A stretch of 64,000 bases of DNA, taken from the NCBI RefSeq assembly GCF_004010195.1, contig NC_057749.1:18392488-18456487 (forward strand). The letters are read 5' to 3'. Under the pieces are notes generated by a model that saw nothing but the letters and a program-made list of their open reading frames with translations, did no database searches and had not been told where the DNA came from. Both the position numbers and the translations under genes were made by a program. The DNA is from Chiloscyllium plagiosum (lineage: Eukaryota). This document shows, piece after piece, positions 2,044 through 62,348 of the stretch; within the stretch, counting starts at the first letter, position 1, and the number at the start of each line of letters is the position of its first letter.

Positions 2044-2578
2044 AAATGTGTTGCTGGAAAAGCGCAGCAGGTCAGGCAGCATCCAGGGAACAGGAGAATT
2101 GACGTTTCGGGCATAAGCCCTTCTTCAGGAATGGGGAAAGTTTGTCCAGCAGGGTAAGATAAAAGGTAGGGAGGAGGGACTTGGGGGAGGGGCGTCGGAA
2201 ATGTGATAGGTGGAAAGAGGTCAAGGTGAGGGTGATAGGTCACACTGGGTTGGGGGCGGCGAGGTCAGGAAGAAGATTGCAGGTTAGGAAGGCGGTGCTG
2301 AATTCGATGGATTTGACTGAGACAAGGTGGGGGGAGGGGAAATGAGGAAACTGGTGAAATCCGAGTTCATCCCTTGTGGTTGGAGGGTTCCCAGGCGGAA
2401 GATGAGGCGCTCTTCCTCCAACCATCATGTTGCTATGGTCTGGCGATGGAGGAGTCCAAAGACCTGCATATCCCTGGTGGAGTGGGAGGGGGAGTTGAAG
2501 TGTTGAGCCACAGGGTGGATGGGTTGGATAGTCCGGGTATGCCAGAGGTGTTCTCTGAAATGCTCCGCAAGTAGGCGG
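2044..2578 (-). mobile_element. Penelope-like element 3' fragment with terminal (pLTR) region
   Basis: Reverse-complement similarity to GIY-YIG-bearing copies at 18030-18723 and 49815-50430; carries a hammerhead motif. Confidence 0.8.
2101..2128 (-). ncRNA. Minimal hammerhead ribozyme motif (Penelope type)
   Basis: Minus strand reads CTGAAGA-A-GGGC-TTAT-GCCC-GAAAC-GTC: CUGANGA, 4-bp stem II, GAAA, GUC cleavage triplet. Confidence 0.75.
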
Positions 2579-3952
2579 CAATTACAGACCAGTCAGTCTC
2601 ACGTCTGTCGTCTGCAAGGTGTTAGAAAGGATTCTGAGGGATAGGATTTATGACCATCTGGAAGAGCATGGCTTGATTAAAGGCAGTCAGCACGGCTTTG
2701 TGAGGGGCAGGTCACGCCTCACAAACCTTATCGAGTTCTTTGAGGATGTTACTAGACAAGTTGATGAGGGGCGAGCTGTGGATGTGGTGTATATGGGTTT
2801 CAGCAAGGCATTTGATAAGGTTCCCCATGGTAGGCTCGTTCAGAAGGTCAGCAGGAATGGGATACACGGAAATTTAGCTGTCTGGATACAGAATTGGCTG
2901 ATCGACAGAAGACAGCGAGTGGTCGAGGAAGGAAAATATTCTGCCTGGAAGTCTGTGGTGAGTGGTGTTCCACAGGGCTCTGTTGTTGGGCCCTTACTCT
3001 TTGTAATTTTTATTAATGACTTGGATGAGGGGATTGAAGGATGGGTCAGCAAGTTTGCAGACGACACAAAGGTTGGAGGTGTCGTTGACAGTATAGAGGG
3101 CTGTTGTTGGCTGCAGCAGGACATTGACAGGATGCAGAGATGGGCTGAGAGGTGGCAGATGGAGTTCAACCTGGATAAATGCGAGGTGATGCATTTTGGA
3201 AGGTGGAATTTGAAAGCTGAGTACAGGATTAAGGATAGGATTCTTGGCAGTGTGGAGGAACAGAGGGATCTTGGGGTGCAGGTACATAATCCCTTAAAAT
3301 GGCCACCCAAGTGGACCGGGTTGTTAAGAAAGCATATGGTTTTTGGCTTTCATTAACGGGGATTGAGTTTAAAAGCCGTGAGATCTTGTTGCAGCTCTAT
3401 AAACCTTTGGTTAGACTGCACTTGGAATACTGTGTCCAGTTCTGATCGCCCTATTATAGGAAAGATGTGGATGCTTTGGAGAGGGTTCAGAGGAGGTTTA
3501 CCAGGATGCTGCCTGGAATGGAGGGCTTATCTTATGAAGGAAGGTTGACTGAGCTCGGACTTTTTTCATTGGAAAAAAGAAGGAAGAGAGGGGACCTAAT
3601 TGAGGTGTACAAGATAATGAGAGGCACAGATAGAGTTGATAGCCAGAAACTTTTTCCCAGGGCAGAAATTGTTAACACGAGAGGTCATAGTTTTAAGCTG
3701 GTTGGAGGAAAGTATAGAGGGGATGTCATAGGCGGGTTCTTTAAGCAGAGAGTTGAGAGAGCATGGAATGTGTTGCAAGCAGCAATTGTGGAAGCAAGGT
3801 CATTGGGGATATTTAAGAGACTGCTGGACATGCGTATGGTCACAGAAATTTGAGGGTTCGAACATTAGGTTTACCTCACATGAGGATCAATGGTCGGCAC
3901 AACATCGTGGGCTGAAGGGCCTGTTCTGTGCTGTACTGTTCTGTGTTCTATG
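2576..3952 (+). mobile_element. CR1 LINE ORF2 reverse transcriptase C-terminal part and 3' UTR
   Basis: ORF 2619-3356 has QHGFVRGRS, FSKAFDKVPH, SGVPQGSV and SKFADDTK; ORF 3467-3853 has LERVQRRFTRMLPG and TRGHSFKL; tail ctgtgctgtactgttctgtgttctatg. Confidence 0.95.
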
Positions 3953-4714
3953 AATCTTTTGGAATTCTAAACCCAAGAGGGCTGTAGATGTTTAGTCATT
4001 GAATATATTTAAGCATGAAATAAACAGATTTTACAGCTCTGGGGGATTGGGGGCTGTGGTAATTGTACTGGAGAGTGGAATTGGGGTCCAAGATTATTAC
4101 CCGTGATGTTGAATGAAGGAACAGGCCTAAAGGAACGCATCGGTTGTCCTCTTACGATTCCTGGCTACTTTGGCCCTTAAGCTGCCTCATTGTCAATTGT
4201 TCAAGTCCAGACGACACCACATTTGAACATTGTTCAAAAGTTGCAAACTGAATGCCACCAGTCAAATCAAAAACATAAAAGATAATGTTGCATTGATCTG
4301 CCTCGAACCATCTGCAGTGGGTTTTAATGATCACTATTGTACCTGATCTAAGGAACAGATGAGAGCTATCTTTGGATAGCGGAAGTAAATTTCTAGTTTC
4401 TCTAACTGTCTGCCCCGCCAGCCCCAACCCCCCCCCACCACTCCAGATGCTCGGTCTGAATTTGAAACTGGGACACATGAGTCTAGTTTCTGACTGTGAA
4501 ATTAACACCCCTGAATTACATTGAGTTCTGAATTTTCACACTGCGTGAGGCATATGAAGGAGTGTGGCCATTCCTTAAATCTTCATCTTACTAAGTACTA
4601 AAGCTTTGACAAAGAACATAATGCTAATTGCTTGGGAGCAAATATCTTTGTTTCCTTTCTTCTTAAAATATTGCAATGATTAGAGCATTGTTAATTTTAG
4701 ATTCCCAAGATCTC

Positions 4715-5057
4715 ATCGAATCCCTACAGTGTGGAAACAGGCCATTTAGCCCAACAAGTCCACACTGACCCTCCGAAGAGTAACCCACCCAGACCCATTC
4801 CCCTACCTAATTGCTGTACATTTCCCCTGACTAATGCACCTGAACTACACATCCCTGAATGCTGTGGGCAATTTAGAATGGTCAATTCACCTAACCTGCA
4901 CACCTTTGGTCAGTGGGAGGAAACTGGAGCGCCTGGAGGAAACCCACGCAGACACGGGGAGAGTGTGATAACTCCACACAGACAGTCACCCGAGGCTGGA
5001 ATCAAACCCAGGTCCTTGGTGCTGTGAGGCAGCTGTGCTAACCACTGAGCCGCCATA
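4715..5057 (-). mobile_element. HE1-type V-SINE
   Basis: Reverse complement has tRNA-like head ggcggctcagtggttagcac...gggtttgattcc, V core and gggcctgtttccacactgtagggat-type tail. Confidence 0.9.
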
Positions 5058-10125: not shown

Positions 10126-11556
10126 CTTTTTTTTTCTCAGGTTTGATCCTGAAACTGGATCAGTTTGGAGGTATAATCGTCCGTGTTTACACTAGACTGG
10201 GGACCAGAAACCTAAAAGGGAATGTTCTGTTTATCATTAATCAGTGACATCAGCTGGAGGGATGATGATGAACATATTTGGCTTACAGTCCCTCTGAGAC
10301 TGGGTAACTGGCCAACCCAACACTTTGTTATGGATGATGGATGATGGATGAATATGATCCTGGGGATAACATGGAATTGCGCCCACATAGATTAGAAGAA
10401 CATTAAGCTATATAAGCTATAATTCTTGAAGCACATGTGTGCCTGGTCACCTTGACAGTACAGGTGTACAACAGTTCTGTGAAAGGTCATCAAGCTGAAA
10501 TGTTCACTCTTTCTGATAATGCTGTTAGACCTGAATATTTCCAGCATTTTCTGATTTTATTTCTGATCATCAACACCCACGGTTTTTTTTGTACCTTGGT
10601 TGCATTTCTTTCTGTGCAGTTAACATTTTGAAGTATATCTACAACCTAAGCTAGTGCTTGACACACGTTGTCCCACCGTGACCCCATTGAGGCTTGAAGA
10701 AGGTGGGGAATTGGGGGTAAGTCATACTGTGAGCTTAGATGGAGAGACAGTGTGTTTAATCTTCAGTGATTCGTGAGCTTGCATTTGGACCATGAGTCAG
10801 ATCTCAAAGCTCGTTCACTGAGGCTGTGTTCACCATTAAAGGTACTACCAGGATTTAAAGGGACCTTCCAGCAGTTGAGGTTGAACAGAGCTCTATGGCA
10901 GCCGTTGGTCCTTCTGAGCACATACCCATGTTCTCATCTTGCAATTCCATTTGGTGTCATGACCCATGGTTTGGAGGCTCTAGCCTCCATGCCAATATGA
11001 TGGGCCCTACACTGTGCACTTTTCTTTCCACCTTTATGAAATGGTGAAGAGGCCAGCTTGGCTAGTAGCTCTGCGGCCCTGGCTCCAACTTGGTGTAACC
11101 ATCTACTCTTGCTTAATTTGAAACTTTTCCTACTGTCAACTGTTGACGAAGATCTGTTTATGCATCTCCCCAATGAATAGCCCAGAAGAGTCACCTCTAT
11201 TTTCTTCATTTTGTTCTCATGATGGGGTTTGGTTCCACATATCCTTAGCAGTTTACCATATACCTCCGAACTGAACTGGGTAAGTGAGTTGAATTTCCAA
11301 CTAGTCAGTAACCACGATAGATGATACTCAGTCAGTTCACCTCATTACCCCATCCAGTTTCCAATGACACCGAGTATAGCTTTATTGAAATTAGCTTGTT
11401 GGGTTCCTTACCTGGGGAAATCCAAAACCTCATTCCCCTGCCCTACTTTCTCCCCATCAAGTGTTTATTCCTTGAACACTGCTTTCAGATAAACATTACT
11501 TAGTCCAGTAACCCCTGAATGGAATTGCCTTTCCCTGAAGTGTGTCAGATGTGTTC

Positions 11557-11758
11557 AGTTGTGAGGTGCTGGAAAAGCACAGCAGGTCAGGCAGCATCTG
11601 AGGAGCAGGAGAATTGAGGTTTCGGGCAGTCCTGATGAAGGGCTTGTGCCCAAAATGTCGATTCTCCTGCTCCTCGGATGCTGCCTGACCTGCTGTGCTT
11701 TCCCAGCGCCACACTCTCTACTCTGATCTCCAGCATCTGCGGTCCTCACTTCCTACTG
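11557..11758 (+). mobile_element. Palindromic mini-Penelope element with central hammerhead relic
   Basis: Arm 11566-11628 is the reverse complement of 11647-11709; centre ctgatgaagggcttgtgcccaaaatgtc; imperfect flanking direct repeat gtgtgtca(ga)tgtgttc at 11540-11556 and 11759-11773. Confidence 0.85.
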
Positions 11759-14803: not shown

Positions 14804-15303
14804 NNNNNNNNNNNNNNNNNNNNNNNNNNNNNNNNNNNNNNNNNNNNNNNNNNNNNNNNNNNNNNNNNNNNNNNNNNNNNNNNNNNNNNNNNNNNNNNNN
14901 NNNNNNNNNNNNNNNNNNNNNNNNNNNNNNNNNNNNNNNNNNNNNNNNNNNNNNNNNNNNNNNNNNNNNNNNNNNNNNNNNNNNNNNNNNNNNNNNNNNN
15001 NNNNNNNNNNNNNNNNNNNNNNNNNNNNNNNNNNNNNNNNNNNNNNNNNNNNNNNNNNNNNNNNNNNNNNNNNNNNNNNNNNNNNNNNNNNNNNNNNNNN
15101 NNNNNNNNNNNNNNNNNNNNNNNNNNNNNNNNNNNNNNNNNNNNNNNNNNNNNNNNNNNNNNNNNNNNNNNNNNNNNNNNNNNNNNNNNNNNNNNNNNNN
15201 NNNNNNNNNNNNNNNNNNNNNNNNNNNNNNNNNNNNNNNNNNNNNNNNNNNNNNNNNNNNNNNNNNNNNNNNNNNNNNNNNNNNNNNNNNNNNNNNNNNN
15301 NNN
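14804..15303. other. Assembly gap (N run)
   Basis: Run of n. Confidence 1.
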
Positions 15304-15445
15304 CCCAAGGAAACCTAAACATATAAAAGAAAGCAGGCTACACCATTAGTCGCTTCATCCGGAGGCTCACTGATGTTACCTAGAATGATGACAAAACGTC
15401 TGAAAATGAACTTTCTAGCTCAGTGAGCAAACTTACATCCAGTAC
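15304..15445 (+). mobile_element. Terminal fragment of a second Penelope-like lineage with degenerate hammerhead
   Basis: ctgatg-ttacctagaatgatgac-aaaacgtc at 15370-15400 resembles CUGAUGA/stem II/GAAAC-GUC, with flanks unlike the main family. Confidence 0.5.
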
Positions 15446-17350: not shown

Positions 17351-18029
17351 CAAGGAGGACAGGAACTTTGAAAATGGGGCATTGGCCCATCGGGCTCACT
17401 CCGCCATTCAACATGATTGTTGCTAAGCCTCCATCTCAATGCCATATTCCAGTTCTTTTCTCGTATCCTTTGATATCTTTAGCTTCTAGAAATGTGTCTG
17501 TTTCCTTCTTATTCTGTGCCTTCACCTCCACAGCCTTCTGTGGTAGAGAATTCCGTAAGTTCACCACCATCTGAGTGAAGAAATGTCTCCTCATCTCAGT
17601 CCACATGGCTTAGTGTGTATGCTGAGGCCATAACCCCTTGTTCTGGAACCCACGGCTGGGGGAAACATGATCCCATGCATCCAGTCTGTCCAGCCCTGTC
17701 AAAAATTATGTATTTCAAAGAGATTCCTTCTTATTCTTTGAAACTCTCAATAATGTAAGCCTAGTTGACCCCATCTCTCCTTGTAAGAGAAACCTGCCAT
17801 CTCAGAACTCAGTCTGGTGAATCATTGCTGTACTCCCTCTATGGCACTTCTATGTTTTCGGCAGTTAGGAGATTAAAACTACACATGACCCTTCAGGTGT
17901 GGTTTCACCAAGGCTCAGTAAAGCTGCAGCAAGACTTCCTAGCTCTTATACTGAAACCCTCCTGCAAGGAAGGCGAACATACCATTTGACTCCCTAACTG
18001 CTTACTTTCTATGAGCAGTTTCCATGTCC

Positions 18030-18723
18030 GTGACTACCTGGTCAGGTCCACGACCCCCAACAACCCACCCTCCATCCTGGCACCTTTCCCTGCAGGAATT
18101 GCAAAACCTACGCCCACACCTCCTCCCTCACCTCCATCCAAGGCCCTAAAGGAGCCTTCCACATCCATCAAAGTTTTACCTGCACATCCACCAATATCAT
18201 TTATTGTATTCGTTGCTCCCGATGCGGTCTCCTCTACATTGGGGAGACTGGAAGCCTCCTAGCAGAGTGCTTTAGGGAACATCTCTGGGACATCCGCACC
18301 AATCAAGCACACCGCCCTGTGGCCCAACATTTCAACTCCCCCTCCCACTCTGCCGAGGATATGGAGGTCCTGGGCCTCCTCCGCCGTTCCCTCACCACCC
18401 GACGCCATGGAGGTCCTGGGCCTCATCTTCTGCCTTGGAACACTTCAACCCCAGGGCATCAATGTGGACTTCAACAGTTTCCTCATTTCCCCTCCCCCCA
18501 TCTCACCCCAGTTCCAAACTTCCAGCTCAGCACCATCCCCATGACTTGTCCTACCTGCCTATCTTTCTTTCCACCTATCCACTCCACCCTCCCCTCTGAC
18601 CTATCACCTTTTGCCCGAAACGTCGATTTTCCTGCTCCTCGGATGCTGCCTGAACTGCTGTGCTTTTCCAGCACCACTCTAATCCAGAATCTGGTTTCCA
18701 GCATCTGCAGTCATTGTTTTTAC
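18030..18723 (+). mobile_element. Penelope-like element 3' fragment (GIY-YIG endonuclease region and terminus)
   Basis: Frame reading FTCTSTNIIYCIRCSRCGLLYIGETG...FREHL and VAQHFNSPSH; flanking direct repeat ccatgtcc at 18022-18029 and 18724-18731. Confidence 0.9.
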
Positions 18724-19373: not shown

Positions 19374-19575
19374 CAAAAAGTGGGGCACTGGAAGAACCCA
19401 GCAGGTCAGGCAGCATCCGAGGAACAGGCGATTCGACGTTTTGGGCATTCCTGATGAAGGCCTTATGCCTAAAACGTCGAATCTCCTGTATCTGGGATGC
19501 TGCCTGACCTGGGTTTTTCCAGTGCCACTCTTTTTGACTCTGATCTCCATCATCTGCAGTCTTCACTTTCTCTTT
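19374..19575 (+). mobile_element. Palindromic mini-Penelope element with central hammerhead relic
   Basis: Inverted arms around ctgatgaaggccttatgcctaaaacgtc (19451-19478); imperfect flanking repeat gccagtttatagt / gccagtccacagt. Confidence 0.85.
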
Positions 19576-20879: not shown

Positions 20880-21010
20880 AATAAAACAACTGCAGATGCT
20901 GGAGATCTGAAATAACCAATAACAGAAATGGCTGAAGAAACTCTAGTCTGGCAGCATCTGTGGAGAGAAAGCAGAGTTAACTTTTTGAGTCCAGTGACCC
21001 GTCTTCAGAG
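20880..21010 (-). mobile_element. Short Penelope-type terminal element, older subfamily, with hammerhead relic
   Basis: actgcagatgctggagatctgaaa end; minus strand ctgaagac-gggtc-act-ggactc-aaaaagtt; relatives at 10480-10570 (+), 32320-32415 (+) and 47105-47205 (-). Confidence 0.6.
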
Positions 21011-21170
21011 CCTCCCCAGAGTCAGAGGAATGTCTGAATCCCTCTTTCCTATACAAAGCCTCCAGTTGGATGTTCATTTGGTTTGTTCTCCTATTTGTGG
21101 TTAGCAAATAGCACTAGGAGTAATCCTGTGAAGACTACTTTTGAGTTCCTGCCTTTTATTTCCTGTGTCC

Positions 21171-22494: not shown

Positions 22495-22815
22495 GATGTA
22501 GGCTAGAACAGGAGGCTGGAAGAACACAGCAAGCCAGGCAGCATCAGGAGGTGGAGAAGTTGACATTTCGGGTATAACCCTTCTTCAGGACTGGGGGTGG
22601 GGTGGAGTGGGTTGGGGGGTGAAATGGGGTAAAATGGTGAGATAGTGATGGGTGAACACAGGTGTTGGGTACAACCTGATTGGTCAATGGATGGAACGAA
22701 TCTGGTTGGTAGCTTGAAGGAAAGGTCAGTAGGAGGAATGGAAGGGAGGGGGAGGGGCTGGAAAGGGAGCTGGGTGATGTGTGGGAAGATTATTTGAAAT
22801 TGGAGAATTCAATGT
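22495..22815 (-). mobile_element. Penelope-like terminal fragment with hammerhead motif
   Basis: Collinear with 60930-61235; minus-strand core ctgaagaa-gggt-tat-accc-gaaatgtc at 22562-22588. Confidence 0.8.
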
Positions 22816-25419: not shown

Positions 25420-26275
25420 GCCTTTATTCGTCATTGCGTTGAGTATAGGAGTTGGGAGCTTATGTTGTGCCTGTACAGGACCTTCGTTAGGCCACTTTTG
25501 GAATATTGCGATTAATTCTGGTCTCCCTATTGGAAAGATGTTAAACTTGAAAGGTTGAAGAAAAGATTTCATCAAATCCCTACAGTGTGGAAACAGGCCA
25601 TTTGACCCTCCAAGTCCATACCAACTCTCTGAAGAGTATTCCACCCAGAGCCATTCCCCTACATTTACCCCTGATTAATGCACCTAACCTGCACACCCCT
25701 GAACACTCTGGGCAATTTAGCATGGCCAATTCACCTAACCTGCACGTCTTTGGACTGTGGGAGCAAACCCGTGCAGACATGGGGACATTGAGCAAACTCC
25801 ACACAGACAGTCACCTGAGGCTGGAATCGAACCCAGGTCCCTGGCATTGTGAGGCAGCAGTGCTAACCACTGAGCCACCATGCCACCTCTCAAGGATGGT
25901 GCCAGGGTTGGAGGGTTTGAGCTATAGGGAGATGCTGAATAGACTGGGGCTACTTTCCCTCGAATATTGGAGGCCGATGTTGTAAAATCGTGAGGGGCAT
26001 GGATAGGGTGAATAACCAAGGTCTTTTCTCTGGGCTGGGCAAGTCCAAAAGTAGAGGACATAGATTTAAAGTGAGCATGAGCTGTCAGCGGAAGAGGTGG
26101 AGGCTGGTACAATTACAACATTTAAAAGGCCTTTGGATGGGTGCAAGGATAGGAAGGGTTTAGAGGGAAATGGGCCAAATACTGGCAAATGGGACTAGAT
26201 TAATTTAAGATGTGTGGTCAGCATGAATGATTTGGGCTGAAGGATCTTTTTCCGGGTTGTACAGAACTGACTCTA
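25420..26275 (+). mobile_element. 5'-truncated CR1/HER1 3' fragment interrupted by a SINE
   Basis: Collinear with 37485-38110; broken at 25573-25888. Confidence 0.85.
25573..25888 (-). mobile_element. HE1-type V-SINE
   Basis: Reverse complement: ggtggcatggtggctcagtggttagcactgctgcctcaca...gggttcgattcc (A/B boxes), V core, tail. Confidence 0.92.
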
Positions 26276-26813
26276 TCTCAAGTTTGAGTTAGCTGATTCT
26301 GTTTGAATACCAAACCAGGGTTCCTGTCCCAATTTTGCAAGTCTAATATGCAGGGACCTCTGGTGAGGACTGAATTAGATGTGATTGTGCTCTTTGCTAC
26401 AGTTAAATATTTTGCTAACATCTCTCAATCATACTTGGCGACTTGAGTCATTTTGAATGGTGCCCAGCCTGGAGCTGATGGCTGCAGTGTGGGTGGGAAA
26501 ATTTTGAAGTCACTAATTATGTCTGCTTGCTAAGACATGAAGCTTGTAACATTATTTTGCAACATGAAGGATTTTTTTAATCTTGCTTTGTACTCATCAG
26601 GATGAGAGATGTTAGAACTACAGAGTTAAGCCCTCTGGTCCTAGACTCTCCCAGAAGGGGAAGCAGCCTTTCCACAAATACCCTGTCAACACCCCAAAGA
26701 ATTTTATACTGACACCAGGGTGTCAGTAAGGTTGCCTCTTGTTCTTCTATATTCCAGTGGGTCCAGGTGCAATCTACCCAACCTTTCCATGAGACAGCCC
26801 TTTCCTACTTGTT

Positions 26814-27177
26814 TCCTCATTTCCCCTTTCCCCCACCTCACCCCAGCACCAACCTTCCAGCTCAGCACTGTCCTCATGACCTGTCCTACCTGCCTATCTT
26901 CCTTTCCACCTATCCTCTCTACCCTCCTCTCTGACCTATCACCTTCATCTCCACCCCCATTCACCCATTGTACTCTTATGCTACTTTCTCCCCATTACCA
27001 CCCCCTCTTATTTATCTCTCCACTCTGCAGGCACCTTGCCTCTAATCCTGATGAATGGCTTTTGCCCGAAACGTCGATTTTCCTGCTCCTCAGATGCTGC
27101 CTGACCAGCTGTGCTTTTCCAGCACCACTCTAATCTAGACTCTGGTTACCAGCATCTACAGCCCTTGTTTTTACCTA
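26814..27177 (+). mobile_element. Penelope-like terminal (pLTR) insertion with 15-bp TSD
   Basis: Collinear with 18478-18723; perfect direct repeat cctttcctacttgtt at 26799-26813 and 27178-27192. Confidence 0.9.
27044..27079 (+). ncRNA. Minimal hammerhead ribozyme motif, nearly intact, sense to the host gene
   Basis: AATC-CTGATGA-A-TGGC-TTTT-GCCC-GAAAC-GTC-GATT: 4-bp helix I, full core, palindromic ACGT stem III; one mismatch at the base of stem II. Confidence 0.75.
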
Positions 27178-28189
27178 CCTTTCCTACTTGTTATCAGTGA
27201 AGTGAACATGCCGTGGAGGGCCTCCAGTGTTAGCATACCTTTCCTTGGATAAGGGACCCAGAAACTATAGAATTCTTGTAGTGGTCTGACTAGTGTCTCA
27301 TGTAGTTTGAGTAATATCTCCCAACTTTTACACTCCATTCCATTTGAAGTAAACACTGACTTTCTGTTTGCCTTCTCTATTATCCACTGTCTTTGGATGC
27401 TAGCTTTGTGTAACTCATGGTTGGGGACTTCCAAATCCCTCGGTTCTGTAGCTTTCTGCAGTCTTTCTCCATTGAAATAATATATAGTTCTGACATTGTT
27501 ATCTGATTGATAGTCATAGAGGTGTACAGCATGGAAACAGACCCTTCGGTTCAACCCGTCCATGCCGACCAGATATCCCAACCCAGTCAAAAGGAATCCA
27601 ATTGAAGAGGCTCGTTTCTCCCACAGCTGCAGCATTTTTATAACCATTGATTGAAGCATTCACTCTTCTAATCTCCCTATCATGTTATTTCCAGAGTTGG
27701 AGTCAGGAGTGTCCTAGAATTTCAATTCCTAAAGACTGCACAACAATGCAGGATGTAAATAACTTTACGTCTGGTTTTGAGAGTCTGAATTGGCTGCCTC
27801 AGGGTGGGCGGAGGGTGTTGGGGAAGGCAGAGAACGAGTGATGTAGCTCATTCTTCAAATGTTTCTGTAAGCATCTTGATGGGGGGGGGGGGCTTGATTT
27901 TGATTGAAACTATTCCACAGTGGAAGGCCAGTTGTGAATGTGAGTAAATCTTTCTAATTTCTGCATTGAGAATTCAGTGCCTTAATGTTGTAGCTGCAAG
28001 GTCATGGATTATGAAACTGTTCTCGTGTTTTTATATTTATTTCTCACCAGGGTGCTCCTGATATATGTAGGTATTTTGTTTGCAGCTTGTTGAAGCCCTG
28101 GAATCTAAGCTGGCATGACAATAGCATTTAAAATATGTATGAAGGAGTGATTACTCATGATTAATGCTTGTTCAACTTTTGTTTCCCAG

Positions 28190-35087: not shown

Positions 35088-35310
35088 GAGTTTGCACATT
35101 CTCCCCGTTTCTGCGTGGGTTTCCTCCGGGTGCTCCAGTTTCCTCCCTCAATCCAAAGATGTGCAGGTCAGGTGAATTGGCCATGCTAAATTGCCCATAG
35201 TGTTAGGTGCATTAGTCAGAGGAGGGTGGGTTGCTGTTCAAAAGGTCAGTGTGGACTTGTTGGGCTGAAGGGACTGTTTCCACACTGTGGGGAATCTAAC
35301 CTAATCTAAT
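35088..35310 (+). mobile_element. HE1-type V-SINE, 5' truncated
   Basis: V core and (ctaat)n tail. Confidence 0.88.
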
Positions 35311-36010: not shown

Positions 36011-36029
36011 CCATCAATCTGTCCTTTCA

Positions 36030-42412: not shown

Positions 42413-42665
42413 TCCACACTGACCGCAGTAACAGCTCCCCTCCCGTCTGCACTGACCCCAGTAACAGCTCCCCTCTCATCTGCACTGACCCCAGTAACAG
42501 CTCCCCTCCCGTCTGCACTGACCCCAGTAACAGCTCCACTCCCGTTTGCTCTGACCCCAGTAACAGCTCCTCCCGTCTGCACTGACCCCAGTAACAGCTC
42601 CCCTTCCGTCTGCACTGACCCCAGTAACAGCTCCCCTCCCGTCTGCACTGACCCTGGTAACATCT
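42413..42665. repeat. 33-bp minisatellite, about 8 copies
   Basis: Unit ctgcactgaccccagtaacagctcccctcccgt read directly. Confidence 0.95.
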
Positions 42666-42717
42666 ATCCTTCACTGTGTACTGAACCCTTTACAGTCACA
42701 TTGACTTTTCACTGACT

Positions 42718-43027
42718 CCAGTGGTTAGCACTGCTGCCTCACAGCGCCAGAGACCCGGGTTCAATTCCCGACTCAGGCGACTGACTGTGTGGAGTTTTCA
42801 CATTCTCCCCGTGTCTGCGTGTGTTTCCTCCGGGTGCTCCGGTTTCCTCCCACAATCCAAAGATGTGCGGGTCAGGTGAATTGGCCATGCTAAATTGCCC
42901 ATAGTGTTAGGTTAAAGGGGTAAATGTAGGGGTATGGGTGGGTTGCGCTTTGGCGGGTCGGTGTGGACTTGTTGGGCCGAAGGGCCTGTTTCCACACTGT
43001 AAGTAATCTAATCTAATCTTATCTAAT
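42718..43027 (+). mobile_element. HE1-type V-SINE, well preserved
   Basis: cagtggttagcactgctgcctcacagcgccagagacccgggttcaattccc head, CpGs retained, (aatct)n tail. Confidence 0.93.
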
Positions 43028-43489
43028 TGTTCTGCTTCTGCAGTACTCTGAGTAACATCCACCACCTTCTCTGCAGTGCTCCCAGAAATAACGTCTGTCC
43101 TGCACTGATACCAGTAACAACCACACCGTTTTCTGTTGCCCTGTTTTGATCACCCTGTGAGGTTTTCCATATAATGAGTCTAAATTCCAGTACAAGTTGA
43201 TAATGTGGATTCCAAGGTTGAAGAATGCCATGAGTTTTAAATTTGTTTGACTTTTTTGGAGCTATAAACCAATTGTGAGTTGCTATCTCGTGGGTACCTC
43301 ATCATTTTTTTTATCCTCAGTGCAAGATTTGCATTGTTGTAATCCAGCACTGTGCCAATTATAATTTATCCTTGTGACTAATTGACTAAACCTCTTTCTA
43401 TTACGTTACAAACTGCCAGATAGCCAGCTGTCTTTCAGCAATCTGCTGTCTGGGCACCTACAGCACGCTGCAGTTGCCAAGTTGTTAAG

Positions 43490-45843: not shown

Positions 45844-46088
45844 AGGGAGAGAGACTTGCTTTTGTGGCTATCATTAATTGCCTTTCAAAGTTTAAGCAAC
45901 ATCTTGCATTCTTATTGCACCTTTATTACAGGAAAACCACTCAAGGCGCTTCATGGGAACACAAGAAGGGAGAGAGACTTGCTTTTGTGGCTATCATTAA
46001 TTGCCTTTCAAATTTAAGCAACATCTTGCATTCTTATTGCACCTTTATTACAGGAAAACCACTCAAGGCGCTTCATGGGAACACAAGA
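45844..46088. repeat. Tandem duplication, 123 bp plus 122 bp
   Basis: 45844-45966 and 45967-46088 appear identical apart from a 1-nt indel (tcaaagttt / tcaaattt). Confidence 0.95.
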
Positions 46089-48581
46089 CAAAAATTTATA
46101 GTAAGCTGAAGGTAGAAATGCTAGATGAGGTGACTTCAAAAAGATGGGTATGGGTGAGTTAGAAGGGGTGGGGTGAGGGTGAATTCCAGAGGTTGTAACC
46201 TGGATAACTGAGGGTGTAGCTCCCAGTGGGGGTTTGCACAGGTAGGGAGCAGTTATGAAAAGTTCACTCAATTAGCTGTCCTCTTGAGAGATCTAGCATG
46301 ACCTGGTGGGCTAAAGCAGGTTTTGCATTTTATCACGGTGTTGTTTGCTCTGCAGGATTTCAGTGTGTGTGTTGTGCAAGGCCTAACACAGAATATATCA
46401 TTGTGTGTGTTTTGTTTCAGTATGCAATGTATTGGGCTGGAATAACTAAGTGCGTTCCTTGTACAGTACAGAATGTACTCCCCCAAGGACTGAATGCCTG
46501 TGCACTTCACTAAGTAGATATTGGCACCATACTAATTCTAAACGCGAACCTGCTCTGGATCACTGTTCTCACGCATTCCCTCAGGGTAGTTGGTGAAAGA
46601 GTCTGTAGGCAGCAATGCCAGCCACAAGATGTATTGATCAATTCACATTGAGATAGATCTCTCAATTTTGGAAAGATGCAAAACCTTAGGAAGCACGAGC
46701 TTTTGATTTCTGTCTCATGAAAACCTCCACACCAGGAGCTGTTTGCTTTTCACTTTGGTTTTCCTCCAGGAGCAGTGAAAGTGGTTTTAGAGAAGATGCC
46801 AATTGTGGATAGAAAACGGCCAGCTCACTGTGTCCAGCATGCATTAATCTGGTCACCTGGTTCTCAGCTCAGCTTGCTGGCCCCAACTCAGCTGAATTAT
46901 TTAGAAAAACAAAATTAAGGATCAAATCAGGACACGAGAGGTAAAACGAAGCTGCCTGCTGTTAGTCCATTCTGTCAACAATGTTGTAAAGAAAGGCTGT
47001 GTGGTGAGGCACTGAGCTCCTTCAAATGGCCATGGTTCTGTATGGTCTGTGATGAGTCATCTCACGGCTGGTAATGAACTCTTTGCCAGTCACTCTGAAG
47101 ACACAAACAAAAACAAGTTGCTGGAAAAGCTCAGCAGGTCTGGCAATATCTGTGCAGAGAAATCAGAGTTAATGTTTCGAGTCCAATGGCGCTTTCTCAG
47201 AACTGAGGAAGGAATTTTCATTGCTGAGATGAACAAGTGAGCCTTCATTGAGATATATTTTGGCTCGGAGGACCGATTACCTGATTGTGGAGCAGGGAAA
47301 ATTCGAATCTACCCCCAGCCATCGCTTCCCTTACTCCTTCCCCCTTCTCCCCACACAAGCTTGGCCTCCTCCTTTCTGGCCCTTTCATTATTGCTGAGTC
47401 AAAATCCTCCCTTCCTAACAACACTGTGGGTGACCCAGTAATCTAAGGAAGGGCTGCAGTGGTTCATGAAGACAGCTGACCACTATTTTCTCCAGGGTCA
47501 TTATGGATGGACAATGGACACTAGCTGAGCCGTTGATACCTGCATGAGTGAATGTTCTTTTAAAAACCCTCTGTTGTCTTGACACCTTTTCTCTTAGGGT
47601 TACTTTTAATCAATGTTCAGACATGTTTTGACGCACTGGAGAGACTTGAATCCAGACCTTCTGGCTCAGAGGCAAGGACACTACCCCCTGTCACAAGAGC
47701 ACCCCTGCTTTCTTAATTATTGCCCCTTGAGGGGCATTAACTGCAACAACAGGAGTGGGATTTCTAGCTCTGATTGTTTTGCTTTATTAGCACAGACTGG
47801 GGTTCAAATCTTGAGAAGTTTCTGGCCTTTTGGTCTTCACTGGATAAATTTGAGTTAAAAATGTGGTTGACCTGTAACTGCCTTCTGGGCAATTAGGGAT
47901 AGGTAATAAATACTGGCCCTGTCGGTGACTCCCTCAACCTATGAATGAATTAAATAAAGGTAAATCTGCTGCATTATTTTTATTTGCCATCATAATTCAG
48001 GCAGAATGGAAATAACCAGACTTTGCAATCTACAAAAGGCTTAGAAGGCATAGTCCAGGGAATTAGAACTGAAGGGTTGGCCATGCATTAGAAGAATGTA
48101 ACAGTCTCAGTTGTATTGATTTAATGAGGGTAGTTGGACCAGACACAATATTAATACATTGAAGCTGATTTGGAAACTCTTATTCTGTTGATGGGAGGAA
48201 AGGCCATAACAGCAGAGGTTGGAAACTTCCATAAAATGAAAGTATTGTTGGAGTTTTGAGCACTGCCAATGTTCCCTTAAACAGATACTTCCTTCTACTG
48301 CTTCCCAGGAATGTAGGAGGACCAAGCCCATTCAGTCCAACCACTGTGTGCTGGTATTTGTTGCCTTAAGCCTCCTGTTGTTTTTGGAACACACAAATTA
48401 GGAGCACGAGAAGGTCATTTCGCCCGTCAAGTCTGCTCCACCATTTGATAAGGCCATTACTAATCTGATTATGGCCTCAATTCCATTTTCCAGCCTGCCC
48501 CAGATCGCTTTGATTCATAAGTTTGGAATAAGGCCTTGGTTCACATCTTCCGCAGTGGACGGGGACTCTATATGGAAGTTA

Positions 48582-48903
48582 CGGGCGGCACTGTGGTTAG
48601 CATTGCTGCCTCACAGCGTAAGGGACCTGGGTTCAATTCCTGCCTCGAGCAACTGTCTGTGTGGAGTATATATTTTCCCCGTGTCCTCTGGGTTTCCTCC
48701 AGGTGCTCTGGTTTCCTCCCACAGTCCAAAGATGTCCTGGTTAGGTGAATTGGCCGTGCTAAATTGCCCGTAATGTTAGCTGCATTAGTCAGAGGTAAAT
48801 ATAGGGGAATGGGTTTGGGTGGGTTACTCTTCGGAGGGTCGGTGTGGATTTGTTGGGCCAAAGGGCCTGTTTCCACACCATAGGGGATCTAATCTAATCT
48901 AAT
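48582..48903 (+). mobile_element. HE1-type V-SINE
   Basis: Head with B box gggttcaattcc, V core, (atcta)n tail. Confidence 0.9.
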
Positions 48904-49814: not shown

Positions 49815-50430
49815 CTGTTCAGTGGAATCAATGTTTTGGGCATAAGCCCTTCATCAGGAATGAGGCTTGTGGGCCGGGGCTGAGAAATAAATGGGAGGGG
49901 GGGTAGGATGGGGGGGGGAAGGTAGCTGAGAAAGCGATAGGCAGACGAAAGTGAGGGAGAAGCTGATAGGTCAGAGGGGGGAGTGAAGGACAGGTCCGGA
50001 AGGCGGTGCTGAGTTGGAGGCTTGGGAGTGGGATAATGTGGGGGGAGGGGAATTGAGGCAGCTGTTGAAATCCACATTTATCCCGTGTGGTTGCTGGGTC
50101 CCAGGGTGGAATATGAGGCGTTCTTCCTCCAGGCGTCGGGTGGTAATGGTTTGACGGTGCATGTCCTTGATGGAGTGGGAGGGGAAGTTGAAGTGTTCAG
50201 CCGTGGGGCGGTGGGATTGATTGGTGGGTGCGGGTGTCCCAGAGATGTTCTCTGAAACAATTCGCAAGAAGGTGTCCTGTCTCCCTGATGTAGAGGAGAC
50301 CACACCGGGTGTAACGGATACAGTAGACGACGTTGGTAGAGGTACAGGTAAATTTCTGATGGATGTAGAAGGATCCCTTGGGGCCTTGGACGGAGGTGAA
50401 GGGTGTGGTGTGGTGTGGGCACAACAGGTT
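49815..50430 (-). mobile_element. Penelope-like element 3' fragment (GIY-YIG region)
   Basis: Minus ORFs KFTCTSTNVVYCIRYTRCGLLYIRETG...FREHL and RRLEEERLIF; hammerhead relic at 49830-49857. Confidence 0.9.
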
Positions 50431-50439
50431 TTGCTACCC

Positions 50440-53485: not shown

Positions 53486-54554
53486 ACCTTCAAAAAGGTA
53501 TGGGATAAATATATGAAGAGAAAGTGTAGAAGGCTTATGGTAAAGAGCAGGTGACTAGAATGAATTGAATATCTTCTTTGTATGGTTGGCATAGTAATGA
53601 TGGGCCAATGGTGGGCCTCTTTTGCTTTAGAATTTTATCAATGTTATATCTGCTTTGCTTTCATCTCCAGTTTGGAAGCTTTTTTCAGCAATGTAACATC
53701 ATCCTGTATTAACTTGTACATTTGTCTGTCAGTGGGTTTCGGGCAAGAGGTAATGTGGTGCCGTTTTGCAGATTAAACTTCAATGGTTCAATAAAATCAA
53801 TAAGTTTCCACAAAACCTTTTTCATCATAAAGAGTGACTTGGAGCAGGTTCTGGCATGTTGGTCTGGAAGCAGTCATGCCAGAGAGCTGATTATGGGATT
53901 TATTTTAAATTACGTCTCCTTCGATATAAAGGATCAGGGACCGATTGTGATGGTTGATCTGGCCCATGCCCTCTCCTGAGCAACTCTCTTGAGAGATATA
54001 GAGAGGGCCTCTGAATCCTTTCTCTTTGAGGTCTTGAGAATATGTGAAACTTGTGCTCACTCCCATCACAGGTCCAAGACCTGCCACAGCCTACAGGCTT
54101 CCTCACTGTGGATTTAACATTGTACCCTTAACCTGCACAGTTCCAAAAGTAATCACTTGATATTTTATCCTTATACTGCCAGAGTTACAGTGCCTCTCAC
54201 AGCATGAGATCCCCAAATGTAGGTAAGGAAATTAAAATAGTGCTGAGCTTTTCATTTCTCATTGCCTCCCCACCACCAGCACATGGGACATATCCTCTTT
54301 CCACTGGGCTGCCACCTTTGAAGATATTCTTGGTAAAAGCAATCCCCTGGGTCTTCCTCCATTCTCTTGCTTTTTCTTCCAAAAGATGGCAATATTCTGG
54401 CAATCAGACTTGTCCCAGAGGCATTTAGACACATGCCTGAACAGGCAGGGGATGGAGGCTTATGGACCACATACCGATGGGATTAATTTAGAATGGCATC
54501 ATGGTTGGAGTAGATGTGATGGGCCAGTGGGCCTGATTCCATGCTGATAAGTGT

Positions 54555-55501
54555 CCTTCTCCAATCATAGGTACCTTCCCTGGTGCCCTTTCTGCTTCTC
54601 CAACCACAGGATCCCCCCTCCTTCTCCAATCAAAGGACTCCCTCCTCCTTCTCCAATCACAGGACTCCCCCCTTCCTGTTTCTCCAATCACGGGATCCCC
54701 TGCTTACTGCTTCTCCAATCACAGGACTCCCCCCTTCCAGCCTCTCCATTCACAAGATTCCCCCCTTCCAGCTTCTCCAATCACAGGTTTCTTCCTTTCT
54801 TGCTTCTCCAATCCAGGATTCCCCCTTTCCAGCTTCTCCAATCACAGGATTCTCCCCTTCCTGCTTCTCCAATCACAGGATTCTCCTTTCCTACTTCTCC
54901 AATCACAGGATTCCCCCTTCCTGCTTCTCCAATCACAGGATTCCCCCTTCCTGCTTCTCCAGCCACAGGATTCTCCCTTCCTGCTTATCCAATCACAGGA
55001 CCCCCCCTTCCTGCTTCTCTAATCACAGGATTCTCTGCTTCCTGCTTCTCCAATCACAGGATTCTCCTTTCCTACTTCTCCAATCACAGGATTCCCCCTT
55101 CCTGCTTCTCCAATCACAGGATTCTCCTTTCCTACTTCTCCAATCACAGGATTCCCCCTTCCTGCTTCTCCAATCACAGGATTCTCCTTTCCTACTTCTC
55201 CAATCACAGGATTCCCCCTTCCTGCTTCTCCAATCACAGGATTCTCCTTTCCTACTTCTCCAATCACAGGATTCCCCCTTCCTGCTTCTCCAATCACAGG
55301 ATTCTCCTTTCCTACTTCTCCAATCACAGGATTCCCCCTTCCTGCTTCTCCATCACAGGACTCCCCAATTCCTGCTTCTGCAATCACAGGTGTCCCTTTC
55401 GTCTCTTCCAAATCACATGCTCCCTCACTCTCTCTCCCTTTCTGTTCCTCCAATCACAGGTTCTCCCCCCTCCTGCCCTTCCTACTCCTCCAATCACAGG
55501 T
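54555..55501. repeat. 30-bp minisatellite, about 31 copies, with a 60-bp higher-order core
   Basis: Unit ttctccaatcacaggattcccccttcctgc alternates with ttctccaatcacaggattctcctttcctac; exact 60-bp periodicity across 55051-55350. Confidence 0.97.
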
Positions 55502-56349
55502 ACGCCTGACACCCTTCCTGCTCACTTGCAGCCTTTTCTATTCCCTCGATCAATGATTCTGCCTCTCGAGTAGCAGCCGGCGTAGAAGGGAGAGAATCTG
55601 TCATTGAAGGAGCTGGAGCAATTGGCAGAGGTGAATCAGAAACTGTGTTTGAGGAGCAGCACAGATTCCCACAGGCGATGACAACTCTTTCACTTGAGCT
55701 CTGTTATTTTCTTGCTCCCAAAGAGACATCTGTTCCTGTGATTGATTAGCCTGTTCAAACCATGAAGGATCTTTAATATAGTTGAATAGAATGGGAGGAT
55801 AACATGTCTTAAATTTTCTGCTCCTGTCATTGCTTATTTGTGGGTTACTTGTGTCATTTCAAGGGTGAATTTACCCGCTGCTTTTCTATCGTTCGAACTC
55901 AATGACGATTCCCATATATTCGCAAACACACAGGTCATAAGTTTGTCATCATTATTTTGGAAGCTTGTTCTCTTACATTTCTGCTGTTGATCCAGGTCCC
56001 CTCAGCTGTAGAATGACATTGCAATCACTCTTGTGAGGTTGCAGCTATTAGGAAAGTTTGTCTTTTCTAGAAGAGAAGTTGTCACAAAATTATGAAGGGG
56101 TTTTATATAGTACAAGGACAGAAAATGCTCCATTTGTGTTAACGTCGCAAACAAATATAATTCAAAATTCAGGAGAATGTTTTTTTCCTGAGTGGTGAGA
56201 ATGTGGAAATTTACTGCATCAAGTGATTGAGGGGAATAGTGTATGGAGTCATTTATGGCATGGAAGGAGGTCATTTGACCCATCGAGTCCATGTTGGCCC
56301 TCATGAGTAATCCTGTCAGTCCCATTACACAGGTCAATCTTTTTTGTTG

Positions 56350-57733: not shown

Positions 57734-57736
57734 TAT

Positions 57737-59412: not shown

Positions 59413-59701
59413 CAGTGGTTCAGTGGTTAGCACTGCAGCCTCACAGCACCAGGGTCCCAGGTTTGACTCCAGCCTTGGGTGAGTGTGTGTGGAGTTTGCA
59501 TATTCTCCCCTTTGTCTGCGTGGGTTTCCTCCGGGTGCTCCGGTTTCCTCCCACAGTCCAAAGGTGTGCAGGTCAGGTGAATTGGCCATGCTAAATTGCC
59601 CGTAGTGTTAGTTGCATCATTCAGAGGGAAATGGGTCTGGGTCGGTGTGGACGGGTTGGGCCGAAGGGCCTGTTCCCACGCTGTAAGGAATCTAATCTAA
59701 T
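59413..59701 (+). mobile_element. HE1-type V-SINE
   Basis: Head, V core and (aatct)n tail. Confidence 0.9.
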
Positions 59702-60124: not shown

Positions 60125-60665
60125 AATAACTCACCTCCTGACTCACCAAGGAATATACAAGGCATATGGCAGGGGTGTGATGGAATACTCCCCACTTGCC
60201 TGGATTTGCTCAACTCTAATGACAGTCAAGATTGACACCATCCAAGACAAAGTAGCCCATTTGATTGGTATTACATCCACAAACCTTCACTCCCTCCACT
60301 AGCAATGCTCTGAAGTGCCTGCAATTCACCAATGCCCCTTAGACAACAATTTCCAAACCCACAACAACTATTGAAAAGGACAAGAACAGCAGAGACATAG
60401 GAATGCCATCACCTGGAACTTCCCTTCTAAGTCAGTAACCATCCTGACAATGGAAATATGTTGCTGTTCCTTTCGGGTCACCAGATCAAATTCCTGGTGG
60501 CCGCGTCTCCACACCCATTGTGGATCTACCTGCAGCAAATGGGCTCCAGCTTTTCAAGAAGGTTGCTCAGCAGCAGCTTCCTATTAACAGTTTGGGGTGG
60601 ACCATGAAAGCTGGCTTGGCCTGTGACGCCCACATCCTGCGAATGGGTTTTTAAAAAAAAAAATC
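60125..60665 (+). mobile_element. CR1-superfamily LINE 3' end (non-HER1 family) with A-rich tail
   Basis: Decayed IYKA..GVMEYSPLAW...DTIQDKVAHLIG; tail gacgcccacatcctgcgaatg followed by an A run. Confidence 0.7.
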
Positions 60666-60888
60666 ACTGCATTTGCATGTGGGAAATGGAGTTGCAAGTG
60701 CTTTGGATTGTATTTCTGAAAGGTTTGTTGAGTGATCATTGCTGAAAATGCCTTCTATAAGGCTAATCTTGTAACATGGAAAAGGCCATTTGGCCCATTG
60801 TGTCTGTCCCAAATATGTCAGTGTCAGTTGGTGGGCCCATTCTGTTTTTTTGGAATCCATGTGTGAACCTGACTTTGTGTTACACTTG

Positions 60889-62348
60889 GTTAGAGAGGAA
60901 AAGAACTGCAGATGCGGGAATCCAAAGTAGATAGGCAGGAGGCTGAACACAGCAAGCCAGGCAGCATCAGAAGGTGGAGAAGTCGCGTTTCAGATTTAAC
61001 CCTTCTTCAGGACTGGGGGGTGGGTATAGGGGGAGCTGCAGATAAAGGGGGTGGCATGGGCAGAGTGGCCAAGTGAGGATAGGTGAAGACAGGCAGGGGG
61101 TATGACCTGGTTGGTCAATGGGAGGAATGAATCCAGTTGGTGGCTGGGAGGAGTGGAAGGGAGGGGGATAGGCCGGGTCCGGTAAGGGAGTTGGGTGATG
61201 GGAAGGGAGGTTATTTGAAATTGGAGAACTCAATGTTGAGTTCTCCGGGCTGTAGGCTGCCCAGGCAGAAGATGAGGTGTCGTTCCTCCAATTTGCTGTT
61301 TGGTTCATTTTGGCAATGGAGAGGGCCAAGGATGGTCATGTCGGAAAAGGAGTGGGAAGGGGAATTAAAATGAGCAGTGACTGGGAGGTCAGGTCGGCCC
61401 CCGTGGGCCCAGCTGAGATGCTCGGTGAGCTGTTTCCTCAGTTTACGTTTGGTCTTTCCGGTGTAGAGAAGACCACACCAGGAGCACCTGATGCAATAAA
61501 CTAGGTTGCAGGAGAGGCAGGTGAACCTCTGTCTCACCCTTCTGCCAACTCCAACTAGACCCCACCACCAAGAACATCTTCCCCTCCCCACCCCTCTCTG
61601 CCTTCCGCAAGGACCATTCCCTTTGACAGTCCTTGGTTTGTGCCACTCTCCCCACCAAACTCCCAGGTACCTTCCCCTGCAACCGGAAAAGATGCAAAAC
61701 CTGCAGGCTCCATTCCCCCTCTCCCCACCTCCATCCAGGACCGCTAACAGTCCTTCCAGGTGAGACAGAGGTTCACCTACCTCTCCTTCAACCTAGTTTA
61801 TGGATCTGGATTGGTCTTCTCTACATTGGGGAGACCAAATGTAAACTTAGGGAACGGTTCACCAAGCATCTCAGCTGGGCCCACGGGGGCCGACCTGACC
61901 TCCCAGTCACTGCCCATTTTAATTCCCCTTCCCACTTCCTCTCTGACATGACCATCCATGGCCTCCTCCATTGCCACAACGACTCAGACTGCAAATTGGA
62001 GGAACGACACCTCATCTTCTGCCTGGGCAGCCTACAGCCTGGAGGACTCAACATTGAGTTCTCCAATTTCAAATAACCTCCCTTCCCATCACCCAACTCC
62101 CTTCCCAGCTCCTCCTCCTCCCTTGCACTCCTCTCAGCCACCAACTGGATTCATTCCTCCCATTGACCAACCAGGTCATACCCCCTGCCTGTCTTCACCT
62201 ATCCTCATTTCACTTCCCACCCCACCCTTGCCACCCACTTTATCTGTAGCTCCCCCTACACCCAGCCCCAGTCCTGAATTGTTGACTTCTCTACCTCCTG
62301 TTGCTGCCTAGCTTGCTGTGTTCTTCCAGCCTCCTCCTGTCTGTCTAA
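60889..62348. mobile_element. Foldback Penelope-like insertion (inverted arms of about 600 bp) with 15-bp TSD
   Basis: Minus arm 60889-61538 and plus arm 61540-62348 both encode GIY-YIG motifs (LVYCIRCSWCGLLYTGKT / GLLYIGETK); tttgtgttacacttg at 60874-60888 and 62349-62363. Confidence 0.92.

Follow-up and report, generated by a model that had tools for sequence, protein, structure and literature searches.

Minimal hammerhead motifs in a Chiloscyllium plagiosum locus are very probably 3'-terminal modules of Penelope-like retrotransposons

Introduction

Minimal type I hammerhead ribozymes (min-HHRs) have been known in metazoan Penelope-like retrotransposons (PLEs) since the work of Cervera and de la Pena (2014, PMC4209133). 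That work describes motifs with CUGANGA and GAAA boxes, an unpaired nucleotide before helix II, a G10.1-C11.1 pair, a short helix I, a palindromic 15.2-16.2 pair and neither helix III nor loop 3; many consensus families per genome are reported, associated with reverse transcriptase (RT) and GIY-YIG domains, and most copies are solitary or in opposite-strand pairs. Here we show that a 64,000-nt stretch of Chiloscyllium plagiosum contig NC_057749.1, searched in full and hereafter called the window, holds motifs sharing all of these traits, and we conclude that its sites are very probably the 3'-terminal modules of PLEs of at least three families carrying min-HHRs. The kind of element is thus already known, and the locus supplies a new host for it: the consulted parts of PMC4209133 mention no shark, and our full-text literature search found no paper on Penelope ribozymes in sharks. 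The shark motifs also differ from those described there in their helix II, which has 4 bp in the main shark family vs 7-8 bp in the Schistosoma families, in a copy number more than 10 times the ~9,000 given for Xenopus, and in that a motif copy upstream of the reading frame was not found in the shark loci.

The Poseidon element PAc of Anolis carolinensis (PMC11167929, likewise consulted in part) resembles the shark elements in having its hammerhead fixed ~90-115 nt before the inserted 3' end, at least two alternative 3' ends giving an optional tail, extension of both target strands, which is consistent with head-to-head pairs, and no RNA-seq reads starting or stopping at the cut site. The PAc reading frame begins at stem II, whereas no long frame starts within the shark unit, in which the AUG of CUGAUGA opens a frame that stops after 17 codons in the window sequence.

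The Schistosoma Sm-alpha and newt satellite 2 hammerheads, also of type I, share with the shark motif the catalytic core, the topology and a short palindromic helix III region. Such a short palindromic region favours hammerhead action as dimers. Canonical type I hammerheads (Rfam Hammerhead_1) possess a helix III, a loop 3 and loop-loop tertiary contacts, all of which the shark motif lacks. Finally, animal non-LTR retrozymes (Li et al. 2026, bioRxiv 10.64898/2026.07.22.740005, consulted in part) are short non-coding type I hammerhead units related to PLE termini and are present in one sampled chondrichthyan. They form tandem arrays, carry canonical hammerheads and yield circular RNAs, whereas the shark units are solitary or in inverted pairs, and no retrozyme-like array or circle was seen for them in the window or in 25 sampled genomic copies.

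Hammerhead motifs in the window

With helices I and II annotated, 53 natural motif copies, 4 of them from the window, served to build a covariance model (R1), which was run over the window with filters off, matches being listed to E<=10. It returned 35 matches, 11 of them with E<0.01, and these are exactly the 11 main motifs or relics that an earlier, sequence-only reading of this DNA had listed; 7 of the 11 lie outside the training set. Inspection found the described sequences at all 13 places named by that reading, and all four stem II pairings that it quoted (GGGC/GCCC, GAGC/GCTC, GGGT/ACCC and GGGTC/GACTC). Its two weaker sites fared less well: the one near 10485 is recovered only weakly (E=0.2), and the one near 32325 gives no R1 match at E<=10, its downstream tail (32340-32416) matching family 2 (defined below) by blastn instead. 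The motifs fall into three families:

Family 1: A-GGGC-loop-GCCC, triplet GUC, several sublineages
Family 2: A-GGGUC-ACUS-GACCC, triplet GUU
Family 3: U-GUYACC..GGUGAC, triplet GUC

Eight of the 11 sites belong to family 1 (in several sublineages), two to family 2 and one to family 3, and family 2 also accounts for both weak sites. The window copies, with R1 matches at E<0.01 marked by "R1", are the following (UTR, untranslated region; MFE, minimum free energy).

2044-2579, minus strand: family 1 PLE 3' fragment with endonuclease C-terminal remnant 2320-2577, C-rich 3' UTR, hammerhead 2093-2136 (R1, 52.1 bits, E=4.4e-12; boxes 2104-2131, core complete) and tail; blastn 88.6% over 537 bp to locus L047; truncated at 2043 by an N run
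10469-10512, plus strand: weak family-2-like relic, first box CUGUGAA, core broken (E=0.2)
11565-11755: family 1 head-to-head hairpin of two tails, predicted MFE -131 kcal/mol; left arm 11565-11628 inverted; right arm beginning 4 nt before CUGAUGA, with relic 11624-11667 (R1; G12 to A), the sole arm with a ~40-nt extension
15307-15440, plus strand: family 3 relic adjoining an N run, hammerhead 15362-15408 (R1, E=0.0026), 2 nt of CUGAUGA lost, G12 to A; blastn 84% to L065
18027-18705, plus strand: family 1a PLE copy, absent from the sequence-only list; endonuclease frame 18055-18594, then GCCCGAAACGUC plus tail, 18608-18705 (97% to L030)
19375-19572: family 1 head-to-head hairpin; right arm with relic 19443-19486 (R1; G12 to A and a single mismatch in stem II) and with the only tail extension
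20921-21016, minus strand: family 2 relic (R1 20971-21016, E=0.00021), stem II GGGUC/GACUC, GAAA to AAAA, triplet GUU
22515-22596, minus strand: family 1, GGGU-UAU-ACCC sublineage (R1 22554-22596, E=7.6e-10), U-A for C-G at 10.4-11.4, C15.2 to U, C-rich region upstream
26811-27156, plus strand: family 1a copy with endonuclease frame end 26863-26928, 3' UTR, hammerhead 27040-27083 (R1) and tail
32340-32416, plus strand: family 2 tail relic (blastn), hammerhead part too decayed for R1
35686-35890: head-to-head hairpin belonging to the GAGC/GCUC sublineage, which is compensated; right arm with hammerhead 35790-35833 (R1), tail extension confined to the left arm
47102-47208, minus strand: family 2 relic (R1 47163-47208, E=1.8e-07), first box CUGAGAA (G8 lost), triplet AUU
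49825-50413, minus strand: family 1 copy with endonuclease remnant 50014-50412, 3' UTR and hammerhead relic 49822-49865 (R1), G12 to A, GUC to AUU, without tail
60930-61576, minus strand: family 1 copy, GGGU sublineage, with endonuclease remnant 61127-61576, relic 60977-61018 (R1, E=0.0001), stem II decayed, U16.1 deleted, and tail
61495-62330, plus strand: inverted partner of the preceding copy, with endonuclease remnant 61495-62046 and tail piece 62302-62330; doubtful hammerhead relic 62266-62291 (E=2.6, not significant)

Two N runs, 1095-2043 (949 bases) and 14804-15303 (500 bases), cut the copies at 2044 and 15307 and may hide further ones.

Almost all of these copies are mutationally dead, mostly relics. 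The full core (CUGANGA, GAAA, GUH) is kept at only two of the 11 sites, 2093-2136(-) and 27040-27083(+), the latter with intact boxes and G10.1 changed to U; the other nine have a mutated core. Many of the breaks fall at the three CpG steps within the motif (CCCGAAACGTCGA), namely C11.1-G12 (CGAAA to CAAAA, 5 copies), C15.2-G16.2 and C17-G1.1. As many window relics and many family 2 copies across the genome are altered there, counts of intact motifs strongly under-count the total. In the copy at 18027-18705, an internal deletion (18594-18608) in a young family 1a copy took out the 3' UTR together with the hammerhead half that bears CUGAUGA, so that the endonuclease frame reads directly into GCCCGAAACGUC. 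The exact pattern CTGANGA-N4-30-GAAAC occurs at three places in the window, 2104-2128(-), 27048-27072(+) and 60987-61010(-); shuffled windows contain 1.26 on average and 11 of 100 shuffles reach three, so that the exact count within the window is not significant by itself.

Penelope-like coding remnants and element hallmarks

The association with PLEs is seen in the sequences that precede the motifs. Frames just upstream of two window copies have weak Pfam matches to GIY-YIG (E=0.0094 and 0.035), and the string IIYCIRCSRCGLLYIGET is present in two endonuclease frames upstream of window motifs. A protein search returned as relatives a 486-aa protein of Chiloscyllium punctatum (P0003, 83% identical) and an 858-aa protein (P0004) with RVT_1 plus GIY-YIG domains. 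With these two proteins as queries, tblastn found endonuclease remnants at five places where the motif, or its 3' half, follows directly downstream (2577-2320(-), 18055-18594(+), 26863-26928(+), 50412-50014(-) and 61576-61127(-)), besides the inverted remnant at 61495-62046(+); six window copies lie ~15-220 nt downstream of GIY-YIG remnants.

P0004 gave 147,865 first-look candidates in the 3.56-Gb genome. Open frames several hundred residues long are among the matches listed, and the longest PLE frame among those examined encodes 893 aa, in locus L045. Its RVT_1 domain scores 33 bits (Pfam cut-off 29.6), IIY..YIGET is visible, and GIY-YIG reaches 21.2 bits vs a cut-off of 22.6. It also contains a C-x4-C-x2-C linker, which suggests the Neptune group rather than Poseidon, to judge from the part of PMC8557442 consulted. 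An intact motif lies 160-360 nt past the frame, on the same strand, in six of ten loci found by protein search, and L082 likewise has a downstream motif. Long PLE copies match L045 at 95.6-97.9% identity across 1.9-2.3 kb, from which we infer that the family is young and recently active. The N-terminal part of the 893-aa frame also holds a 120-bp tandem repeat (L045 oriented 1075-1590, ~4.3 copies, 97% identity).

Further evidence comes from the arrangement of the copies. The three window hairpins (11565-11755, 19375-19572 and 35686-35890) are head-to-head tail pairs, each with a ~40-nt extension on exactly one arm and a direct arm that starts 4 nt before CUGAUGA. The same extension is the loose-end consensus past position 3774 of L047 in read data, and L047 has alternative 3' ends at 3762, 3769 and 3774 with a shared extension beyond. 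An inverted piece also stands at the 5' end of locus L044, and inverted arms are present at eight of 14 family 3 loci. Folded as single RNAs, the hairpin copies have predicted energies of -115 to -131 kcal/mol, with the 3' half of the hammerhead buried. An inverted 5'-truncated copy with a one-sided 30-40 bp tail has been described for PLEs (Craig et al. 2021, PMC8557442), and the optional tail has been explained as the product of two reverse-transcription start sites, with both target strands extended (PMC11167929), as far as the consulted parts of these papers go. A Deu-type short interspersed nuclear element (SINE) domain was considered as a possible identity of the tail and dropped once the endonuclease frames appeared. 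Endonuclease remnants upstream, inverted 5' copies and one-sided tails together support the Penelope-like identity to which the sequence-only reading had pointed.

Abundance of the three families in the genome

The pattern CTGANGA-N9-22-CGAAACGTC has 115,579 matches in the genome vs 82 for a reversed-pattern control, and the density is one intact motif per ~31 kb. The family 1 stem GGGC/GCCC has 87,506 matches (control 0), one exact family 1 28-mer has 33,157 copies (control 0), and the GGGU..ACCC sublineage of family 1 has 171 (control 0). Motifs with a nucleotide other than A after the first box, mostly family 3, number 21,886 (control 265), one family 3 sublineage has 760 matches (control 0), and the family 2 pattern (GUU-AAC) has 3,072 (control 10). 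All three families are thus in the window and abundant in the genome, in agreement with the earlier claim that at least three ribozyme-bearing lineages colonised the locus. The autonomous partners of families 2 and 3 are less clear: for family 2, an endonuclease match stood beside the motif in one of 12 loci, on the opposite strand.

Conservation and covariation of the fold

A pattern scan of the window and 64 loci yielded 79 distinct motif stretches. Alignment A1 contains 53 of them; 5 chance-looking or overlapping stretches and 21 close variants of represented families were omitted by hand, and since five of these 21 have U at 10.1 and one has a broken stem, the paired percentage of A1 is slightly flattering. 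In A1, 85.1% of the cells are in standard pairs vs 63.9% after shuffling (a level attained by 0 of 500 shuffles for the observed value) and 22-39% with the partners displaced by 1-3 columns. The covariation score is 0.466 vs 0.164 shuffled, and at most 0.172 after displacement. Seven of the 12 pairs have changed on both sides, including 4/4 of helix I and 3/6 of helix II. All 53 rows have the unpaired nucleotide after A9 (A in rows of families 1 and 2; in family 3 rows U, with a single C). Position 10.1-11.1 is GC in 36 rows, GU in 12 and other in 5, the GU rows being ascribed to CpG decay of C11.1. For the ACGU palindrome, 15.1-16.1 is A-U in 53/53 rows, and 15.2-16.2 is CG in 38, UG in 6 and other in 9. 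The 11 core letters (CUGA-GA, GAAA, U) do not vary among the three families, although their helices differ.

Genome counts of the family 1 stem II, in contrast to this signal between families, give a thinner picture:

GGGC/GCCC, unchanged: 87,506
GAGC/GCCC (A.C), single change: 1,333
GGGC/GCUC (G.U), single change: 1,077
GAGC/GCUC, compensatory double: 378
GGAC/GUCC, compensatory double: 37
GAGC/GUCC, non-partner double: 37
GGAC/GCUC, non-partner double: 48

The double GAGC/GCUC is found 378 times vs ~16 expected from independent singles over 87,506, and its copies are mostly one haplotype, shared with the window copy at 35790. The other compensatory double, GGAC/GUCC, is no commoner in the genome than the two non-partner doubles. 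Likewise, the G.U single is not commoner than the A.C single, so that most variation within family 1 is neutral decay after insertion. Compensated lineages within family 1 thus comprise one amplified sublineage (GAGC/GCUC) and GGGU..ACCC, and compensation is not in excess generally. In family 3, pair 10.3-11.3 reads U.G in 63, U-A in 33, C-G in 4 and C.A in 0 of 100 listed rows; these counts were rejected as a covariation test, as clonal lineages would lack the fourth type anyway. Folding predicts stem II in 8/8 natural copies and the full helix I plus II topology as MFE structure in 3/8, and predicted cofolding of copies did not yield the textbook dimer. The earlier claim that the structure was under selection while mobile is therefore supported between families (85.1% vs 63.9%), and selection on the fold is only thinly visible inside family 1.

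A sharp 5' boundary at the ribozyme

A sample was formed from contig C1 by taking its first 25 exact matches to the family 1b motif, whatever their flanks; they represent one sublineage. Five extend into the 3' UTR; eight are solo, their similarity breaking off 0-5 nt upstream of CUGAAGA, one of them with a 10-nt target duplication; and 12 are in head-to-head pairs that meet in or beside the ribozyme. Across the genome, 6,971 junctions have an inverted arm ending <=12 nt from CUGANGA, and the same junction classes recur among different loop variants. Read and k-mer depth on L047 rise ~5- to 14-fold at 3681/3682, -4/-3 from the CUGAAGA box. Random 5' truncation of an element of more than 2 kb would not give this pattern. 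For the HDV (hepatitis delta virus)-like, twister, pistol and hatchet ribozymes, Rfam gave no match accounting for the -4 boundary. The start 0-5 nt upstream of the ribozyme in 20 of the 25 sampled copies is possibly a new point. Either the common template RNA may begin at helix I, or the cDNA may regularly end and join there.

RNA reads over the motif

In the raw reads of X19 (poly(A) single-cell RNA, ~2/100 of the run sampled), 1,263 reads fell on L047:3000-3900. The depth per orientation was 4-13 in the reading frame, 17-74 in the 3' UTR, 250-484 at 3682-3774 and <3 past 3774. Both orientations are similar, and 93% of the placed reads continue into unlike sequence; most of them therefore appear to stem from copies embedded in other transcripts.

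Other repeats and frames in the window

Among 171 of the 188 N-free stop-to-stop frames of >=75 aa, Pfam found only RVT_1, weak GIY-YIG and three weak chance matches. The RVT_1 frames, without tblastn match to the PLE proteins, are probably fragments of the long interspersed nuclear element (LINE) type:

2559-3356, plus strand: RVT_1, E=2.8e-31, adjoining the PLE copy that ends at 2579
36876-37412, plus strand: RVT_1, E=1.6e-17

A 30-bp minisatellite occupies 54586-55390 (26.8 copies, 84% matches), because of which the plus-strand frames of 340 aa (54551-55573) and 312 aa are regarded as spurious. Tandem arrays lie at 42417-42722 and 45844-46088 (a 33-bp unit x7.5, and a 122-bp unit x2 at 99% identity). 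A ~40-70-bp repeat, which may be a separate short repeat, has eight copies in the window with 82-92% identity (117-180, 4725-4762, 25581-25619, 27525-27564, 35252-35311, 42964-43033, 48845-48903 and 59648-59701), and also occurs just upstream of the long PLE frame in L045 (oriented 1009-1081).

Discussion

The 3' modules share one layout, made up of a helix I strand of 3-4 bp, CUGANGA, one unpaired nucleotide, a helix II of 4-7 bp, GAAA, the palindrome-forming C-G, U-H, the second helix I strand and a tail of 45-65 nt. This corresponds to the type I hammerhead in its minimal form, as known from the terminal repeats of PLEs. Copies are 5'-truncated and often joined in head-to-head pairs, with the optional ~40-nt tail at one end, and between families it is the pairing of the helices, not their sequence, that is conserved. 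Following the literature, the element RNA would be copied by the PLE RT starting inside the tail, and the hammerhead, lacking helix III, would need a second copy, paired to it through ACGU, in order to cut after GUH.

Several results weigh against the identification as PLE hammerheads. Rfam gave zero hammerhead-family matches in the window at gathering score or E<=10, the eight matches at E<=10 being only chance microRNA-precursor hits on long hairpins or inverted repeats; a missing match is expected, because the motif has no helix III, yet no curated model backs the call. The GIY-YIG Pfam scores of the window frames, P0004 and the L045 frame all lie slightly under the curated cut-off, and for family 3 a weak endonuclease similarity was found upstream in just one of 14 loci. 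None of the seven long-frame loci with a downstream motif has an upstream motif copy in its flanks, which are short or partly N, so that the classical arrangement of an open reading frame between two pseudo-long terminal repeats (pLTR-ORF-pLTR) is unsupported here. In A1 the rows are related, and the effective independent events are therefore only few per pair; helix I contains a U.U mismatch in half of the copies of families 1a and 1b, and helix II an A.G or G.G mismatch in the commonest forms of family 3. Finally, in X19 there was no end pile-up anywhere on L047:3000-3900 and no depth dip at the GUC site (3712/3713), which, for poly(A) single-cell reads sampled at ~2/100 of the run, speaks weakly against efficient cutting in those cells, in line with the report on Anolis (PMC11167929).

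A hammerhead-like string that arose by chance in the tail of some unrelated SINE or LINE family, and was then multiplied by amplification, would fit the facts that the window copies are not independent, one ancestral string being able to explain all of family 1, that the exact-motif count in the window does not exceed that of shuffles, and that no Rfam family matches. As a whole account it was already disfavoured by the three-family architecture and by the RT and GIY-YIG frames upstream, and we regard it as very improbable: the same architecture and core recur in three families with different helix sequences, the motif stands behind RT plus GIY-YIG frames, and the unpaired nucleotide, G10.1-C11.1 and the ACGU palindrome, traits listed in the consulted parts of PMC4209133, are all present. 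It is less far-fetched, if still unlikely, that the conserved fold serves the PLE RT for recognition or as a stop, not for self-cleavage, the core being an inherited shape with little or no catalysis in these families. All inserted copies have the motif uncut and joined to the tail and thus derive from uncleaved RNA, and X19 reads span the GUC site; as for PAc, the available parts of PMC11167929 report that catalytic mutants left insertion in vitro unchanged, besides the missing RNA ends at the cut site mentioned above, and Cervera and de la Pena (2014, PMC4209133, in part) found low in vitro activity. A mere stem-loop signal, on the other hand, would not need 11 invariant core letters, and the PAc hammerhead does cut in vitro and is rescued by the C3G/G8C double mutant (PMC11167929, same parts).

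The sharp boundary raises a different question, namely whether most copies are full-length elements cut short or a separate class of short (~90 nt) retro-units that are non-autonomous, stem from the PLE end and resemble the animal non-LTR retrozymes, with an RNA that would start at hammerhead helix I and be copied in trans by PLE enzymes. We hold the latter to be possible, though well short of probable. It would agree with the ratio of eight solo and 12 paired to only five extended copies, with the depth step on L047, with the direct arms of the three window hairpins starting at -4, and with the derivation of animal retrozymes from PLE pLTRs (Li et al. 2026, in part). Set against this, neither the window nor the 25 sampled copies show tandem arrays of the unit, the tandem repeats of the window being unrelated; the short copies share loop variants with long frame-bearing copies and may be run-off or aborted cDNAs; and the sampled copies come from one contig and one sublineage, the boundary being read from DNA copies and read depth. 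Somewhat more tentative still is the proposal that the min-HHR marks the exact 5' end of a ~90-nt retro-unit present in ~10^5 copies, its fold or the RNA 5' end setting the template boundary. If true, the hammerhead would be a start point, or a stop or joining point for two opposed cDNAs, and would have a role beyond GUH cutting.

Taken together, our results very probably identify the motifs as PLE 3' ends, by which an elasmobranch genome joins the hosts of PLE minimal hammerheads, with the scale of their amplification shown. For annotation, the motifs should be masked as PLE ends, not reported as intronic ribozymes with a host function. The 5' boundary and the junctions inside the ribozyme offer a testable handle on the role of the hammerhead for PLEs.

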